Part shown: piece after piece, positions 5,230-60,639 of the stretch
How the letters are laid out: each line of letters opens with the position of its first letter
How positions within the stretch are numbered: the first letter of the stretch is position 1
DNA from: Candidatus Zixiibacteriota bacterium
GTDB taxonomy: Bacteria > Zixibacteria > MSB-5A5 > GN15 > FEB-12
Assembly: GCA_020351995.1 (NCBI GenBank)
Contig: CP070674.1
Location: 1,064,467 to 1,128,466 of the forward strand
Reading direction: 5' to 3'
DNA length: 64,000 nt
Position numbers and translations under genes: made by a program
The notes under the pieces: model-generated
Databases searched by the model: none
Told to the model about the DNA's origin: nothing
What the model saw: only the letters and a program-made list of their open reading frames with translations

Positions 5230-5931
5230 ATGAAAAAAATTCTCTTTATTTTTGGACTTGCCCTTTTGCTGGTATTTGCTATAGGCTGCTCCAAGGAAGA
5301 CGAGTCGGCTGAGACTGGTGATGACACCGAAATGGCCCAGACCGGCCCGATGACCAGAGAGGACAGTCTGGCAGCCATTCGCTATCCCGTCCGTGACGAA
5401 AACAACAAGTTTGTCACCATGGTAACCGATTACGGCAACATGACCTTTGAGCTTTATCGCGACGTCGCCCCGGCCCATGCTGATTCTTTTGTGGCCAGGA
5501 CACAAGAGGGCTTTTACGACAACACGACCTTCTTCCGGATTATCGATGACTTTATGATTCAGGGCGGCGACCCTACTGGAACCGGTAAGGGGAAAGTAAG
5601 TTACTATTTGAGGGCCGAGCTAAGTGAGCTACCGCATCAGGAGGGTACCCTCGCTATGGCGCGCTCGAGTGACCTGAATTCCGCGTCGACTCAGTTCTAT
5701 ATTTGCCTTGCCCGCAACGCGCTGACCTCGTCGCTTGACGGGAGCTACACTATTTTCGGCCACTTGATCGAGGGTTACGATGCGCTTGACAAGATTGGTT
5801 CGGTTGAAGTTGTGCCGAATCCGAAACGGGTAAATCGGCAGACCGGGGAAGCGGAACCGTCCATGCCGGTTGACACCGTTTATCTGCGGACTGTCTATGT
5901 TTCGGACGCGGAAGGCGAAGAAATTCTGTAG
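5230..5931 (+). CDS. Cyclophilin-type peptidyl-prolyl cis-trans isomerase, lipoprotein
   Basis: 233 aa. Lipobox LVFAIGC. Cyclophilin motifs FFRIIDDFMIQGGDPTGTG and STQFYI. Confidence 0.88.
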   Translation: MKKILFIFGLALLLVFAIGCSKEDESAETGDDTEMAQTGPMTREDSLAAIRYPVRDENNKFVTMVTDYGNMTFELYRDVAPAHADSFVARTQEGFYDNTTFFRIIDDFMIQGGDPTGTGKGKVSYYLRAELSELPHQEGTLAMARSSDLNSASTQFYICLARNALTSSLDGSYTIFGHLIEGYDALDKIGSVEVVPNPKRVNRQTGEAEPSMPVDTVYLRTVYVSDAEGEEIL

Positions 5932-15053: not shown

Positions 15054-15082
15054 TTGACAAGGGAAGCGATTGCTGTAATTAT
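15054..15082 (+). promoter_or_regulatory. Sigma70-type promoter of the riboswitch-btuB unit
   Basis: TTGACA (15054-15059), 17-nt spacer, AATTAT (15077-15082). Confidence 0.5.
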
Positions 15083-15087
15083 TACCT

Positions 15088-15256
15088 GACATCGTTACGG
15101 TGCCGTCATTGGTGGACGGGTAATAGGGAAGACGGTGCGAATCCGTCGCAGCCCCGCTACTGTGTCGGTTACTCTCGAAGCATCATGCCACCTGTCGCCG
15201 ACGGGGAAGGCGCTTTGGGGGGGTCGAAACCGAAGCCAGGAAACCTGCCGTAGCCA
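15088..15256 (+). promoter_or_regulatory. Cobalamin (B12) riboswitch
   Basis: Conserved core strings AATAGGGAA, GGTGCGAATCC, GCAGCCCCGCTACTGT, GCCACCTG...GGGAAGGC and the B12-box-like AAGCCAGGAAACCTGCC. It lies directly upstream of a TonB-dependent receptor. A short TCCTC/GAGGA hairpin can cover the SD GGAGGA at 15331-15336. Confidence 0.85.
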
Positions 15257-15340
15257 AACCGCTTTCTTGCCGTCAGCGCGGGCTGACAGGTGGCTAACAG
15301 CCCGTCCGCGAAGCGCTGACGGTCCTCAGAGGAGGATACC

Positions 15341-55240: not shown

Positions 55241-56194
55241 ATGGCAGAGACAAAGGATTACGATGTTATCATTGTTGGCGGTGGCCCGGGAGGGCTCTGT
55301 GCCGGATTATATAGTGCAAGAGCGAATAGAAAAACCGTATGCCTCGAAAAGTACTTGCCCGGCGGCCAGATCGCTGTCACTGGCGACGTCGAGGACTATC
55401 TGGGTTTCGAGCGCATTCAGGGTTCGGAACTGGCTATGAAGTTCGCCAGTCATGCCCAGAGTTTTGGCCTCGAGGTTCAGATGGAAGAGGTTGAGGAAGT
55501 ATATGTCGATGGTGACTATCGAATCGCTCGGTGTGCTTCCGGCAACCTCTACCGCGGAAAAGCGGTTATCATTTCCACTGGAGGTTCGCCCGTTTTTCTC
55601 AATGTTCCCGGTGAAAAGGAGTACAGTGGAAAGGGTGTGTCCTATTGTGCCATCTGCGACGGCGCATTCTTCAAAGAGCAGGTCATTGGCGTTGTCGGCG
55701 GGGGGGACGCGGCCGTGGAAGAAGGCACCTTCCTGACCAAGTTTGCCTCAAAAGTGTACATCATCCATCGTCGCGACCAGTTGCGGGCACAGAAGATTAT
55801 CCAGCAGCGAGCTTTCGATAACGACAACGTCGAATTCATCTGGGATACGGTGGTTGAGGAAATAGAGGGTGACGGTACCCGTGTGACCAACCTCAAGCTG
55901 AAAAACGTCAAGACCGATGAGAAGTCAAACCTCGCTGTCGGTGCCGTTTTCCCGTATATAGGCTTTAAACCCAACTCCGGTATCACTCGCGAGAAGCTCG
56001 AGACCGACGAGGGTGGATATATCATCACCGACCACACGATGGAAACATCGGTCAAAGGTATTTTTGCCTGTGGTGACGTTCGCGCTCAACTTGTCAGACA
56101 GATAACGAACGCCGTCGGCGATGGAACCACGGCCGCTGTAGCAGCCGAAAAGTACATCGAAAAACTCGAGGATAAGCACGCCAAACGGGCATGA
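55241..56194 (+). CDS. trxB: Thioredoxin-disulfide reductase
   Basis: 317 aa. FAD motif GGGPGG, redox-active CAICDG and NADPH motif GGGDAAVEE. Confidence 0.92.
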   Translation: MAETKDYDVIIVGGGPGGLCAGLYSARANRKTVCLEKYLPGGQIAVTGDVEDYLGFERIQGSELAMKFASHAQSFGLEVQMEEVEEVYVDGDYRIARCASGNLYRGKAVIISTGGSPVFLNVPGEKEYSGKGVSYCAICDGAFFKEQVIGVVGGGDAAVEEGTFLTKFASKVYIIHRRDQLRAQKIIQQRAFDNDNVEFIWDTVVEEIEGDGTRVTNLKLKNVKTDEKSNLAVGAVFPYIGFKPNSGITREKLETDEGGYIITDHTMETSVKGIFACGDVRAQLVRQITNAVGDGTTAAVAAEKYIEKLEDKHAKRA

Positions 56195-56338
56195 CCGCCG
56201 GATTGAGGCAGCCTGCGGTTTGATGTAGTCCACCGAATTGTCGCAGAGTTCGCGCAAGAGCTTGCACATTCCCTTTCAATTATTCGTCCCCACCCCGGAA
56301 CGGGTATTAAAGAAACCCATAATGCTTGTATTTATCGC

Positions 56339-56367
56339 TTGCCAAACAACAAGTTATGGGTTATATT
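56339..56367 (+). promoter_or_regulatory. Near-consensus promoter of an orphan RNA element
   Basis: TTGCCA (56339-56344), 17-nt spacer, TATATT (56362-56367). Confidence 0.5.
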
Positions 56368-56373
56368 GAAAGC

Positions 56374-56538
56374 ACCTTAGAGCCAGACACCAACTCGACA
56401 GTTACAGGCACGGACCTTGCTCTCTTAACAGCGCAAGGCATACTCGCGCTTCCAAATATGGGAGTGGTGTGTGCTGGACACCCAGCCACCTGACGTTAGA
56501 GTCGGGCATCCCCCCTCCACCACTCCCACTTTTATTTG
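56374..56538 (+). ncRNA. Candidate ~165-nt structured RNA or attenuator leader (unclassified)
   Basis: Bounded by the promoter above and a terminator. The terminator is a 10-bp stem GGGAGTGGTG (56460-56469) / CACCACTCCC (56518-56527) enclosing two small hairpins, followed by ACTTTTATTTG. No credible ORF is present. Confidence 0.45.
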
Positions 56539-56610
56539 CAGATTTCCCCTGCAATCAACTTTCACCACGAACGGTCGATATTACATAAAGCAATAGGTGA
56601 GAAAAGAATA

Positions 56611-58575
56611 ATGCGGCTATTACCACGAAAAAAACCGGGTTTTCTAACCCGGTTAGGCAATATTATTATAATTCAGGTCATTTTTGTCTTTGCCGCCCTG
56701 GCTCTTGTAATCTTCTATCCCGATCAGAATCACACAGTCGACTCCGAGTCCATGGCCATGCGCGGGGAGTTCCAGCGCGTTGGAGAACAGATTACCCAAA
56801 CCCTCAATTCCGATCCTTCTGTAACGGATAGCATGCCGTCGGACCAGGCCGTGCGTCAGCATCTGAGAGAGATACTTCGTGTCGAGAAGATCACACGATG
56901 TTACCTGTATTCTCAACAGGAGGGCGGCGGCATCACGAGGTTCATGACACTGGAGCGAAAAGCACCCCGGGAAGATACGGGGGGAGAGGAAATCGATTTT
57001 GACCGCCTGGTAAATCCGGAAATCGTCAAACACCAGTCAAGCCTCGGTGAGGGAACCCTGACACCCATAATACACGACTCCCGATATTTCGTTTATTACT
57101 ATCAATTCAGACCCGATAACGACTCCCGCATGGTACTGGTAGCAATATCTGATCATGGCAAAGGAAGCTCGGTGTTCGGGCAGGTTAAATACACTTTCTT
57201 TGTGCTCTTCTTGGCCTCTACGTTACTGTCGCTGTTGACAGTGTATCTCATAAACAAGCGCTTTCAGGAACCGCTCGAGCGCCTGATCGCCGGATTCGAA
57301 AAGACCGTCAAGGGCGAACTGTACTCTCTCGTTGAAACAGATATGGACGACGAACTGTCTAAACTGGCGACGGCGTACAACGATATGTCTTTAACCCTGT
57401 GGGAAAATCACAAAAGGCTCTCCGATTATAACGCGCGTCTGGAAGACGCCAATGAAATGCTCGCCGAATCCCAGGAGTTTCTGGGAACCCTGATCGATTC
57501 CTCTCCGAGCTGTATAATCTCGGCCTCACCTGATGGTGAGATAATGTTGTTCAACCGGAAGGCTGCCGATGTTTTCCGCGTGTCTCGTCCGGAGATCATA
57601 GGCCATACTATTGATGAATTGTTTACTCACAAGCTTAGTGAGATCGAAACCTGCAAGACGGCGGTAGGTGACAATCACTCGCTTGAAATACTCTGTCGTC
57701 GCGGCGATGGCAGTCTCTTCCCGGCCTATTTGATCTCTGCCCCCGTGCATACTAAAGAAGGTCGGGTCTGGGCACAGCTTTACCTCGTGAAGGATATATC
57801 AGAAAGTAAGAAATTCCAGGAGATGATGATCCGGCTGGACCGTTACTACACCCGCGGAGAAATGGCCGGTGACATAGCCCATGAAATCAACAATTTTCTT
57901 GCTATCCTTTCGGGAAACATTGAATTGATGCCCCTGCTTATGCAAAAGAATGACCTTGAAAAGATACAGCAAAAGCTCGAAGTGATGAAGGGTACCGTTG
58001 ATAAAATTACCCAGTTCACCGATGGGCTGATGGATTCCAGCGAAGACACCGTCCGTTTCGAAATGGCCGACATGAACCAGCTTGTCGAAACAGTCGTGGC
58101 TTTCTTGAAGCCGCAAAACCGTTTTGACGGCATCGAGGTCCAGACCGTTCTTTCCACCGAAATACCCTTGGTCGAAATCGACAGCGCCCAGGTACAGCAG
58201 CTTCTGGTAAACCTTCTTTACAACGCTTCCGAGGCCCTCGAAGACAGGCCGAATAGTCGTCTAATTACCATCAAAACGAGAATTATCGAGGAGCAGCCGG
58301 TGCGCAAGATAATCCTGAAAGTCTCTGATACCGGTCCGGGTGTCCAACTGGATAAAGAGGAATTGCTGTTCCGTAAGCGATTCACGACCAAACCCAGGGG
58401 GCACGGTATAGGTCTTATGACCTGCAAGAGAATTATCGACACTCACGACGGCCGAATTTCATACGAGAATGTCAATGGAGCCGTTTTCACCGCGGAATTC
58501 CCTCTGCTGAAGCGCGCCCCGAAAGCCGAAACCGAGCCCGCCACAACTCCCGAAACTCAGGCCTTGCCGATATAA
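56611..58575 (+). CDS. Sensor histidine kinase (TM-periplasmic-HAMP-PAS-HisKA-HATPase)
   Basis: H-box GDIAHEINNFLAILSGN and G-boxes DTGPGV, GHGIGL. I prefer the ATG at 56611 because the tracked TTG at 56536 lies inside the upstream terminator T-tract. Confidence 0.85.
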   Translation: MRLLPRKKPGFLTRLGNIIIIQVIFVFAALALVIFYPDQNHTVDSESMAMRGEFQRVGEQITQTLNSDPSVTDSMPSDQAVRQHLREILRVEKITRCYLYSQQEGGGITRFMTLERKAPREDTGGEEIDFDRLVNPEIVKHQSSLGEGTLTPIIHDSRYFVYYYQFRPDNDSRMVLVAISDHGKGSSVFGQVKYTFFVLFLASTLLSLLTVYLINKRFQEPLERLIAGFEKTVKGELYSLVETDMDDELSKLATAYNDMSLTLWENHKRLSDYNARLEDANEMLAESQEFLGTLIDSSPSCIISASPDGEIMLFNRKAADVFRVSRPEIIGHTIDELFTHKLSEIETCKTAVGDNHSLEILCRRGDGSLFPAYLISAPVHTKEGRVWAQLYLVKDISESKKFQEMMIRLDRYYTRGEMAGDIAHEINNFLAILSGNIELMPLLMQKNDLEKIQQKLEVMKGTVDKITQFTDGLMDSSEDTVRFEMADMNQLVETVVAFLKPQNRFDGIEVQTVLSTEIPLVEIDSAQVQQLLVNLLYNASEALEDRPNSRLITIKTRIIEEQPVRKIILKVSDTGPGVQLDKEELLFRKRFTTKPRGHGIGLMTCKRIIDTHDGRISYENVNGAVFTAEFPLLKRAPKAETEPATTPETQALPI

Positions 58576-58617: not shown

Positions 58618-60639
58618 ATGCCACAGACACGTGAAAATCACAGATCGGGTATGGAGCAGCGTTATATCGCTACACTGATCATTCTTCTTGCCATTATAGT
58701 CTTTGTCATCACCTGGTATGGCATCAGGGAAAGCCGGGCCGACAGCATGAAACTTCTGGTCATGCAAGGTACCGCCTTTGTGGAGGCTCTTACCGAGGCC
58801 GCCAACAGCGCTATCGAGTCCGAGCGGTTCTTTGACTACCTGGTACACAAACGCTTCTCAGAACTGACCGTGGAACTGGCCCAGCTCGAACTGACCTCAA
58901 TTACCAATGAACAACTGATGAAAACGGCGATGGATCACGGCCTCTATGGCCTCTACGTGTACGGGGCCGACTCGGTCCCTGTGGCCGGTGGGTTGGTCCG
59001 CGGTTCCATGGTCAAGCCACCGCAGTACGTGGTTGACGAGATTATGCAGATTTTGGCCAACCCCGAAGACAACTATGTGTTGTTGCTCGATCAGGGAGAC
59101 GACCCGGATGAAATGGTGCATTACTACATCGAAATCACCAACAACCTCGATCGTGTCATTCTTATCGTGGCCGATGCTCTCTACTACGTGGATGCTCTCA
59201 GTCAGACCCAGATCGGTTACCTCTCCCAAAAGATGGGACAGGAAAAGGGTGTCGAATACATCATTTTTCAGTCAACCGAAGGAATCGTGTTCTCATCGCG
59301 AAAAACACCTAGCCTGCTGGCGATCGAATCCGACCCGTTTCTCAGCGAAGCCTTGAACTCCGACAGTGTAGCATACCGCCCGCACGTATTCGACGATACC
59401 GAGGTACTTGAGCTGGTACGACCGTTCGCTACCAGGGGATTTCCTTTCGGCTTACTCAGGGTTGGTTTGAACCTTGAAAACTATAATGCCATCTCAAGGG
59501 GTTACGACCGCCAGATGGTTACCCTTTCCGGCACCCTTTTCATACTCGTACTCGTGGTCATTCTTTACTTTCAGACCAGGCGCAAACGAAAGGAGATCAC
59601 ACGTCAATACCGGGAAATCAAATCCATCAGCGACAAGATCTTTGATGAGATGGAAACCGGTGTGGCCGCCGTTGATAGTGGCGGTGTGATAACTCTGGCC
59701 AACCGGGCCTTCGAACGGGTCTTTGATGTATCAGCGGTGACGGGGGAGAAGTGGAACAAGCTAATTTCCGTAAGCGAACTGAGTTTCGATACCATTATGA
59801 CCCGGAAAGAATCGTCCCTTGAATACGAATTTAGTGTCGGTTCCGACAGCGACCGCAAGTGGCTCCTGCTTGCCGTGTCGAAGATGATGTCCGAATCGAA
59901 TGAACCCTCCGGGCTCGCCGTTGTGGTATATGACATCACGCGCCTGAAAGAACTCGAACAGAAGGCGGCGCGCAAAGAGAGATTGTCCGAAATGGGTAAT
60001 CTCGCCGCAGGAGTGGCCCACGAAATTCGCAATCCCCTTAACACCATATCCATCGCTGCCCAGCGCCTCGCCGGTGAATTCGCTCCTGCCGAGAATTCCG
60101 AAGAGTACCTCGCTTTCACAAAACAGATCCGCACCGAAACCAAAAGACTTAACGAAATCATCACCAGGTTCCTTGCGCTGGCTCACGAAGAAAAAGAAAA
60201 GGCGAAAGTGACCAACCTCGCGCAGGTAGTCGAGGAATTCCTGCAACTGGTCAGGTACGAAGCTGAAAGCGTCAATATTGATATCTCGGCTCAGATCGAT
60301 CCCACCCTTGAAATCTCAGTTGATCGCGACAGCATGAAGCAGGTCCTTTCCAACCTCTTTAACAATTCAAAGGAGGCGCTTGAAGGGAGAAGCGGCAAGA
60401 TTGCCGTAAGGGGCGTGAAAAAAGAACATGAAATTGAATTGCGCTTCGGTGACAGCGGCCACGGTATCAAATCGGAACTGCGTGAAAAGGTTTTCACTCC
60501 CTTCTACACCTCCAAGGGAACCGGGACCGGACTTGGCCTGCCAACCGTATACAAAATCATTAGTGATTTTGGCGGTGATGTTCGCGTTCAGGACAGCCCC
60601 CTCGGCGGGGCCGAAATCGTAATCAATCTGCCGTCCTGA
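58618..60639 (+). CDS. Sensor histidine kinase (NtrB/AtoS-like H-box)
   Basis: 673 aa with an N-terminal TM, a large extracytoplasmic region and a second TM. H-box GVAHEIRNPLNTI, N-box LFNNSKEA, G-boxes DSGHGI and GTGLGL. No response regulator is adjacent. Confidence 0.85.
   Translation: MPQTRENHRSGMEQRYIATLIILLAIIVFVITWYGIRESRADSMKLLVMQGTAFVEALTEAANSAIESERFFDYLVHKRFSELTVELAQLELTSITNEQLMKTAMDHGLYGLYVYGADSVPVAGGLVRGSMVKPPQYVVDEIMQILANPEDNYVLLLDQGDDPDEMVHYYIEITNNLDRVILIVADALYYVDALSQTQIGYLSQKMGQEKGVEYIIFQSTEGIVFSSRKTPSLLAIESDPFLSEALNSDSVAYRPHVFDDTEVLELVRPFATRGFPFGLLRVGLNLENYNAISRGYDRQMVTLSGTLFILVLVVILYFQTRRKRKEITRQYREIKSISDKIFDEMETGVAAVDSGGVITLANRAFERVFDVSAVTGEKWNKLISVSELSFDTIMTRKESSLEYEFSVGSDSDRKWLLLAVSKMMSESNEPSGLAVVVYDITRLKELEQKAARKERLSEMGNLAAGVAHEIRNPLNTISIAAQRLAGEFAPAENSEEYLAFTKQIRTETKRLNEIITRFLALAHEEKEKAKVTNLAQVVEEFLQLVRYEAESVNIDISAQIDPTLEISVDRDSMKQVLSNLFNNSKEALEGRSGKIAVRGVKKEHEIELRFGDSGHGIKSELREKVFTPFYTSKGTGTGLGLPTVYKIISDFGGDVRVQDSPLGGAEIVINLPS

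Follow-up and report, generated by a model that had tools for sequence, protein, structure and literature searches.

The stretch of DNA considered here, 64,000 nucleotides (nt) from a Candidatus Zixiibacteriota bacterium (GenBank assembly GCA_020351995.1, contig CP070674.1, positions 1,064,467 to 1,128,466 of the forward strand; hereafter the window), raises the question of what is encoded in the gap of 416 nt that separates trxB (55241-56194) from the gene for a sensor histidine kinase (kinase-1, 56611-58575). An earlier note, made from the sequence alone, had read this gap as a promoter-to-terminator unit for a structured RNA of about 165 nt, which would be either a standalone small RNA (sRNA) or an attenuator of the kinase genes downstream. 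The comparison of homologous loci presented here bears out a discrete, non-coding and structured RNA unit in the gap, and in our judgement the region is, on balance, the gene for a free-standing, sigma-54-dependent regulatory sRNA acting in trans. In this regard, the locus combines a predicted promoter and a predicted terminator of its own with the lack of a conserved open reading frame (ORF) and with a conserved single strand that is accessible in the predicted fold.

The conserved core, its fold and its strand

Homologous loci were collected in two ways, as 80 genomic loci were fetched via an alignment of kinase-1 homologues and 85 further loci, with one copy each, were found in metagenomes by an exact 20-mer taken from the core of the element. 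This core of about 70 nt is 80-95% identical in 72 of the 80 genome loci, where the kinase-1 proteins are only 36-63% identical, and it was recovered in 83 of the 85 metagenome loci; the same range of identity, 80-95%, holds for about 150 Zixibacteria loci, genomic and metagenomic ones taken together. In the genome loci the core lies on the strand of the kinase gene, 60-130 nt before its start, and of the eight genome loci without it, seven are truncated at or within the kinase gene's 5' end. The sole locus with a kinase-1 orthologue and a full upstream region that gave no covariance-model match at E <= 1e-6 is L077 (1-5232). In the window the covariance model finds a single copy, with 101.9 bits, whose parts are the following.

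56460-56527, plus strand: three-way-junction core, supported by conservation, covariation and the covariance model
56460-56469 with 56518-56527, plus strand: closing helix P1, arms GGGAGTGGTG and CACCACTCCC, extended by the pair U56459-A56528
56470-56472, plus strand: junction strand J1/2
56473-56477 with 56482-56486, plus strand: helix P2, GCTGG/CCAGC, with loop L2 at 56478-56481
56487-56489, plus strand: junction strand J2/3
56490-56494 with 56501-56505, plus strand: helix P3, CTGAC/GTCGG, with loop L3 at 56495-56500
56506-56517, plus strand: junction strand J3/1, exposed and C-rich (GCAUCCCCCCUC), near-invariant and predicted to be unpaired; candidate seed or recognition element
56530-56537, plus strand: U tract TTTTATTT directly after P1, with which it likely forms an intrinsic terminator and the 3' end of the RNA

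The closing stem, the two inner hairpins and the U tract are present as the earlier note had described them. A stretch of 167 nt folds with a minimum free energy of -55.1 kcal/mol (z = -3.6 against shuffles), and RNAalifold returns the same three-way junction from 69 distinct homologues. In these sequences 93.3% of the pair cells hold standard pairs, as opposed to 34-52% when the partners are slid, and in a later alignment of 99 sequences, realigned with the covariance model, the corresponding values are 93.4% and 34-51%. The alignment of homologous intergenic regions for covariation, which had been proposed as a check, thus yielded a conserved core in which nine pairs changed on both sides in the 99-sequence alignment, compared with 4.0 +/- 0.9 in shuffles, and none of 500 shuffles reached nine. 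P2 occurs as GCUGG/CCAGC, GCUGA/UCAGC, GGUCG/CGACC and GUUGGAC/GUCCAAC, while in P1 a U-A pair is replaced by A-U in the four class B loci described below and by C-G in L040; the pair flanking P1 was counted as AU 38 times, UA 26 times, CG 17 times and GC six times. All one-sided changes are from U-A to U-G or from G-C to G-U, and because such changes fit the plus strand only, the RNA is to be placed on that strand. The minus strand folds equally well (z = -3.2), although this option is ruled out by the pattern of G-U wobbles and by scores of 102 versus 25 bits, the 25-bit match of the covariance model to the mirror image being due to the self-complementarity of P1. A coding function is likewise ruled out, since single-base insertions and deletions occur in the C run and in loop 2 of the homologues and preclude a conserved ORF, in line with the earlier note.

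Besides pairing, the sequence itself is maintained. Both strands of P1 and of P3, J2/3 and the 12-nt J3/1 hardly vary among the homologues, 32 alignment columns are invariant across the 69 sequences, and J3/1 has a mean predicted probability of 0.88 of being unpaired. As far as the alignments tell, the conserved object is the three-way junction itself, which the earlier note had taken for the terminator, and not the sequence upstream of it, where that note had placed the conserved information.

No known RNA class had been recognised at first sight, and this still holds. With Rfam 15 at the gathering threshold, the only match in the window is a cobalamin riboswitch at 15081-15266, a scan of 56150-56700 at E <= 10 gave only noise (best mir-702, with 18.7 bits against a gathering score of 70), and no match was found at the element in the loci of the two variant classes A and B. 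Judged by these searches, the core is a new RNA family outside Rfam 15 and confined, as far as seen, to Zixibacteria, and it is unusual in its near-invariant sequence, in a terminator that encloses a three-way junction and in the C6 stretch of its junction strand. Several loci with the full Zixibacteria synteny (among others L005, L006, L008 and L009, and also L066 and L070) carry Ignavibacteriales, Calditrichaeota or Bacteroidetes labels, which are probably taxonomic mislabels, binning errors or annotation noise. The best named homologues of the proteins next to the class A and class B copies are from Zixibacteria, and in view of these homologues and of the shared synteny of the mislabelled loci an extension of the family beyond this phylum was rejected.

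Two of the metagenome loci, L104 and L140, match the 20-mer without the rest of the element and were set aside as chance matches, of which about one is expected by a rough estimate (about 10^12 bases, both strands). In L104 (1331-1350) an 18-nt C-rich segment, CGGGCAUCCCCCCUCCGC, forms the loop of an unrelated hairpin with the stem CCCAGAGU/ACUCUGGG, which overlaps an ORF of 515 amino acids on the opposite strand; it mimics the exposed strand of the core and probably represents such a chance match.

Promoters, termination and the attenuator question

Promoter and leader counts were taken over 70 loci, and the alignment of their upstream regions brought out a sigma-54 box. This box, the dyad further upstream and the promoter-like motif in front of kinase-1 had all been missed by the earlier note. 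The elements around the core, in the order of their coordinates, are the following.

56253-56266, no strand assigned: dyad CGCAAGAGCTTGCA, consensus TGCA-N6-TGCA, candidate upstream activating sequence
56339-56367, plus strand: sigma70-like box TTGCCA-17-TATATT, 10 of 12 consensus positions, containing the IHF-consensus-like AAACAACAAGTTA
56407-56420, plus strand: sigma-54 promoter GGCACGGACCTTGC, made up of GGCAC (-24), N5 and TTGC (-12), recognised by motif conservation
56432-56459, plus strand: predicted 5' leader of the sigma-54 transcript, with the start set 12 nt after the C of TTGC
56555-56581, plus strand: TCAA-N15-GTCGATAT, promoter-like motif before kinase-1, recognised by conservation

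In the window the sigma-54 box reads aGGCACggaccTTGCt (56407-56421), with GG at 56407-8 and GC at 56419-20, and agrees with the consensus TGGCAC-N5-TTGCW. The strict motif GG[CT]A[ACT]N5TTGC is found 31-70 nt before the core in 61 of the 70 loci, and these RNA-linked sites are 61 of only 89 occurrences in 1.1 Mb of locus sequence, both strands included; the two other matches in the window both lie inside an ORF of 499 amino acids. The leader varies between loci in length and sequence, the distance from TTGC to the core being 31-70 nt. A start near 56432 would give an RNA of about 105 nt, beside one of about 165 nt from the sigma70-like box. The earlier note had also proposed two small, mutually exclusive hairpins in this region, neither of which recurs in homologous leaders, and the CCTTGC arm of one of them is the -12 element of the sigma-54 promoter.

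The dyad, as [TC]GCA-N6-TGC[AG], is present in 37 of the 61 loci with a sigma-54 box, at distances of 120-176 nt (mode about 150) before the -24 GG, against a background of 0.09 per kb. Its place and shape are those expected of a site for an enhancer-binding protein, for which it is a candidate. A related sequence, TGCACATAnTGTGAAA, is found about 190 nt upstream in class B loci.

The TTGCCA-17-TATATT box at 56339-56367, which the earlier note had taken for the promoter of the unit, is indeed there and is conserved in 30 of the 70 loci, with a 17-nt spacer in 27 of the 30; it is not the only promoter candidate, given that the sigma-54 box follows about 40 nt downstream. Both boxes occur in 24 loci, in 19 of which the sigma70-like box lies 36-39 nt upstream of the -24 GG, whereas 37 loci have the sigma-54 box only and six the sigma70-like box only. 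The predicted IHF-like site WATCAANNNNTTR inside the sigma70-like box is held in a fixed phase to the -24 element. In one clade and in L002, the closest complete genome, the sigma-54 box is degenerate and the sigma70-like box is the sole promoter-like signal left, which argues that it is probably a real promoter too. The sigma70-like box may be a promoter, an IHF site or both.

Past the RNA, a CGATA core is found within 110 nt in 65 of the 70 loci (background 0.84 per kb) and the full pattern TCA(A/G)-N15-G(T/C)CGATA(T/A) in 32 of the 70 (background 0.058 per kb), the motif lying 20-45 nt before the kinase start in nearly every locus. It resembles the sigma-28/FliA consensus, TAAA-N15-GCCGATAA. 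A second GATA is often found 10-13 nt beyond it, and the two together could be the direct repeat of a response-regulator site instead of a sigma-28 promoter; either way, kinase-1 appears to have a control element of its own, to judge by this conservation.

With respect to termination, 74 of 90 distinct kinase-linked homologues have a run of at least four T after P1, as opposed to none of the class A and class B loci. The earlier note had further proposed that the segment ACACCAACTC (56387-96) pairs with the 5' arm of the terminator as an antiterminator. This pairing is no better than that of shuffled sequence, and the segment precedes the predicted sigma-54 start. Leaders are no more complementary to the P1 5' arm than shuffled leaders are, both in the window (z = -0.17) and over 70 loci (mean z = -0.09, with 5.7% of loci below -1.64), and a terminator/antiterminator switch was rejected on these grounds.

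Free-standing copies and the function of the RNA

It is in loci of a different arrangement that the core can be separated from the kinase genes. In class A (eight loci), a sigma-54 box is followed after about 40 nt by UUGGGUGAGUGGUG...CACCACUCCCCAA and, 8 nt further on, by a canonical hairpin with a run of seven to nine T, and the neighbours encode dockerin-like secreted proteins, with downstream genes that are mostly convergent and otherwise unrelated. In class B (four loci), a sigma-54 box and an (ARN)5 leader precede a core with compensatory changes in P1 and P2 and a separate terminator; here mutS2 is convergent downstream, and upstream lies a divergent gene for a short PAS kinase that shares 34-38% identity and the H-box with kinase-1. 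In a few further loci the RNA stands before a YdjC-like gene (L094-type) or directly before a kinase-2 homologue. The proposition that the RNA is always the 5' untranslated region of a co-oriented gene consequently fails, as the downstream genes in class A are convergent and those flanking the class B copies are a divergent kinase gene and a convergent mutS2. Since the core works without a co-oriented gene downstream, these copies argue for an RNA acting in trans, while the repeated linkage to this kinase family, in tandem or divergent, argues for a functional connection. Of the two options left by the earlier note, the standalone sRNA is thus favoured and the attenuator is weakened by free-standing copies with their own terminator.

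Class A copies occur in variable neighbourhoods, which may be an integration hot spot: in L093 (12290-12362) Rfam lists a tRNA on the same stretch, and an ORF in L141 (7107-8378) looks like a phage major capsid protein. The leaders of class B (L097 at about 5320-5345, L102 and L105) share GACAACAACAACGACAGGGGUAC, an (A-R-N)5 repeat; in Proteobacteria, the distal face of Hfq binds repeats of this A-R-N type.

According to the reading that we favour, the sigma-54 promoter, a type that requires an enhancer-binding response regulator, would be activated by one encoded elsewhere, and the AtoS/ZraS-like kinases encoded directly downstream would be the best candidates for the signal input. Transcription from the box at 56407-56420 would yield an RNA of about 105 nt, and probably also one of about 165 nt from the sigma70-like box, which the 11-bp closing helix P1 and the U tract, as an intrinsic terminator of the gene's own, would end near 56537, with some read-through into the kinase genes being possible. 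The exposed C-rich strand CAUCCCCCCUCC would then pair in trans with G-rich or Shine-Dalgarno regions of mRNAs. Autoregulation of the kinase-1 mRNA by this strand was considered and rejected for want of conserved complementarity, and a target prediction in the window returned nothing beyond internal starts, which were spurious, and strong but generic Shine-Dalgarno sites.

Several observations weigh against this reading. Both ends of the RNA are predictions. The predicted terminator is an 11-bp G+C-rich stem whose "loop" is a branched insert of 50 nt with two hairpins, an unusual arrangement that a standard terminator scan does not call, and 16 of the 90 homologues have no good U run. In about 140 loci a constant 60-130 nt separate the RNA from the co-oriented kinase gene downstream, which also fits a leader. 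No enhancer-binding protein (GAFTGA/ELFGH motifs) is encoded in the 64-kb window or in the 165 loci, so that the link between the kinases, an activator and the RNA is circumstantial. Between the C-rich strand and the 5' region of kinase-1 no complementarity is conserved (mean z = +0.08), and a scan for 9-mer complements (about 1.8 Mb, few genes per genome) revealed no recurrent G-rich site at ribosome-binding sites. Finally, the sequence of the helices is itself invariant beyond what pairing alone requires, which exceeds the need of a simple seed-plus-scaffold sRNA and hints at recognition by a protein or ligand.

This last point leads to the rival that survives best, namely a free-standing, sigma-54-dependent RNA that sequesters a protein and does not pair with mRNAs. 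Decoys of this kind have precedents in GlmY-RapZ and CsrB-CsrA sequestration, and 6S binds RNA polymerase. The near-invariance of the P1 and P3 strands and of all three junctions, with the 32 invariant columns mentioned above, goes beyond the needs of pairing, no conserved complementary target was found, and the RNA nearest in architecture, GlmY, acts as a decoy according to PMC7073468. In contrast, the locus has no linked candidate for a partner protein, the loops lack repeated GGA-type motifs, the exposed 12-nt C-rich strand has the look of a classic seed, and the negative result on targets is a weak one, covering few genes per genome; on these data a decoy is unlikely, albeit worth keeping in mind.

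It is more doubtful that the element is a cis-acting leader, in which the junction would be the sensor and P1 the terminator, with a ligand or protein setting the read-through into the kinase genes in the manner of a riboswitch or of a protein-dependent attenuator. Its constant place before kinase-1, its invariant junction nucleotides, an aptamer-like size of about 70 nt and the position of P1 and the U tract, exactly where a terminator would act, are all what such a leader would show; the 16 homologues without a strong U run make read-through plausible, and the glmY-qseEGF locus of Proteus is a precedent for co-transcription of an sRNA with a kinase operon. However, a separate terminator follows this core in classes A and B, which have either no co-oriented gene downstream or a divergent kinase gene, no alternative antiterminator pairing is conserved, the kinase gene has its own conserved promoter-like motif past the RNA, and in L094-type loci the RNA precedes an unrelated YdjC-like gene, so that we regard a leader as quite improbable. 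A related proposal, to which we give slightly less credence still, sees a new class of sensor RNA whose ligand would be a small molecule or a signalling protein, with the P1 terminator gating transcription of the kinase pair and the free-standing copies serving as sponges; it is kept alive because all helices and junctions are invariant in sequence, and, if true, the junction would serve a two-component network as an input of the riboswitch kind.

A plain terminator, of trxB or of the intergenic region, or else a protein site in the DNA that happens to fold, might be suspected from the terminator-like look and the position downstream of trxB and from the perfect inverted repeat that P1 forms in DNA, yet this non-functional option is effectively refuted by the conservation and covariation data, given about 90% nucleotide identity phylum-wide against about 40-60% for the flanking proteins, P1 and P2 kept paired by compensatory changes, strand-specific wobbles, conserved dedicated promoters and cores that also occur away from trxB.

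Genomic setting, known systems and significance

The sRNA gene that we favour lies in a conserved synteny block of cobO, an epimerase gene, trxB, the RNA and two kinase genes, beyond which a citrate synthase gene is convergent to kinase-2. Kinase-1 orthologues are found 3' of the RNA in nearly all kinase-linked loci, and the tandem kinase pair is conserved. Kinase-1 of the window is 100% identical to a protein of a metagenome-assembled genome listed at NCBI as Candidatus Zixiibacteriota.

56611-58575, plus strand: sensor histidine kinase 1, transmembrane-HAMP-PAS-HisKA-HATPase, by Pfam domains
58618-60639, plus strand: sensor histidine kinase 2, PAS-HisKA-HATPase, by Pfam domains and NCBIfam matches

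For both kinases the nearest NCBIfam models are AtoS and ZraS, with scores below the family cut-offs. The partners of AtoS and ZraS are AtoC and ZraR, both of which are sigma-54 activators. Within codons 8-15 of kinase-1 there is a perfect 9-bp hairpin, AACCGGGTT-ttct-AACCCGGTT (56633-56654), which scores as a minus-strand terminator-like site and overlaps the conserved N-terminal PGFLxRL motif. Cobalamin riboswitch aptamers occur in the window (15081-15266, plus strand, 111.8 bits), in L094 (6753-6949, minus strand) and in L097 (1-136, plus strand); they are unrelated to the RNA, but cobO belongs to the synteny block upstream of trxB.

Among known systems, the locus is most reminiscent of GlmY. 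In the order glmY-glrK(qseE)-qseG-glrR(qseF), as here, an sRNA gene lies directly upstream of a co-oriented sensor-kinase gene, and in Proteus mirabilis a single operon comprises glmY together with the kinase and regulator genes qseE-qseG-qseF that follow it (PMC8745638). It has been described that the sigma-54 promoter of glmY comes with sites for GlrR and IHF and that sigma-70 promoters have been added or substituted in some species (PMC3045617); the candidate activator and IHF sites upstream of the sigma-54 box parallel the former, and the mixture of sigma-54, sigma-54 plus sigma-70 and sigma-70-only promoters resembles the variation of glmY/glmZ among Enterobacteriaceae (PMC3045617). The analogy is one of architecture alone, as there is no homology to GlmY/GlmZ in sequence or structure and no match at E <= 10. 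Unlike the GlmY locus, the present one belongs to another phylum and has two kinase genes, no gene for a response regulator or activator and no QseG-like gene, and the core differs from GlmY in being a three-way junction whose closing helix is the predicted terminator.

Likenesses of lesser extent can be drawn to other sRNAs. The Qrr sRNAs of Vibrio depend on LuxO and sigma-54, are extremely conserved and serve a network in which several kinases feed one enhancer-binding regulator; their genes stand next to signalling genes and may exist in several paralogous or architectural copies. To a degree, the element shares with them the sigma-54-type promoter, the extreme conservation, the signalling-gene neighbours and the several architectural classes, whereas there is no Rfam match to Qrr and the fold differs, Qrr RNAs being stem-loops with a separate terminator. 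In 6C RNA of Actinobacteria and in RsaE/RoxS of Firmicutes, unpaired runs of at least six C are thought or have been shown to pair with G-rich or Shine-Dalgarno sequences. An invariant run of at least six C in a region predicted to be unpaired is also found here, in a junction strand instead of hairpin loops, with another promoter type and without an Rfam match to these RNAs. According to PMC11187230, Campylobacter jejuni has an RpoN-dependent sRNA, CJnc230, and a FliA-dependent counterpart, CJnc170, in a sigma-54/sigma-28 hierarchy. The sigma-54-type box before the RNA and the sigma-28-like box before the kinase gene recall that setting, there being no homology to CJnc230, and a flagellar connection, which would follow from the resemblance of one motif alone, is speculative.

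The Zixibacteria, which occur widely in sediment, soil and groundwater, form an uncultured phylum, and full-text literature searches turned up no paper on a regulatory RNA of this group. The RNA is among the most conserved non-coding sequences that can be expected in this phylum, with about 90% identity where proteins have drifted to about 40%, and its locus offers a readable circuit in which a predicted activator site, an IHF-like box and a sigma-54 promoter are followed by the RNA and two sensor kinases. For annotators this provides a new covariance model and a marker of the phylum, and for RNA biologists a compact three-way junction closed by a helix that is predicted to act as a terminator as well. 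As an independent example from outside the Proteobacteria, the locus would place a sigma-54-driven sRNA gene directly upstream of a kinase gene, as in glmY-glrK, and the replacement between sigma-54 and sigma-70 promoters during its evolution parallels that seen at glmY-glrK.

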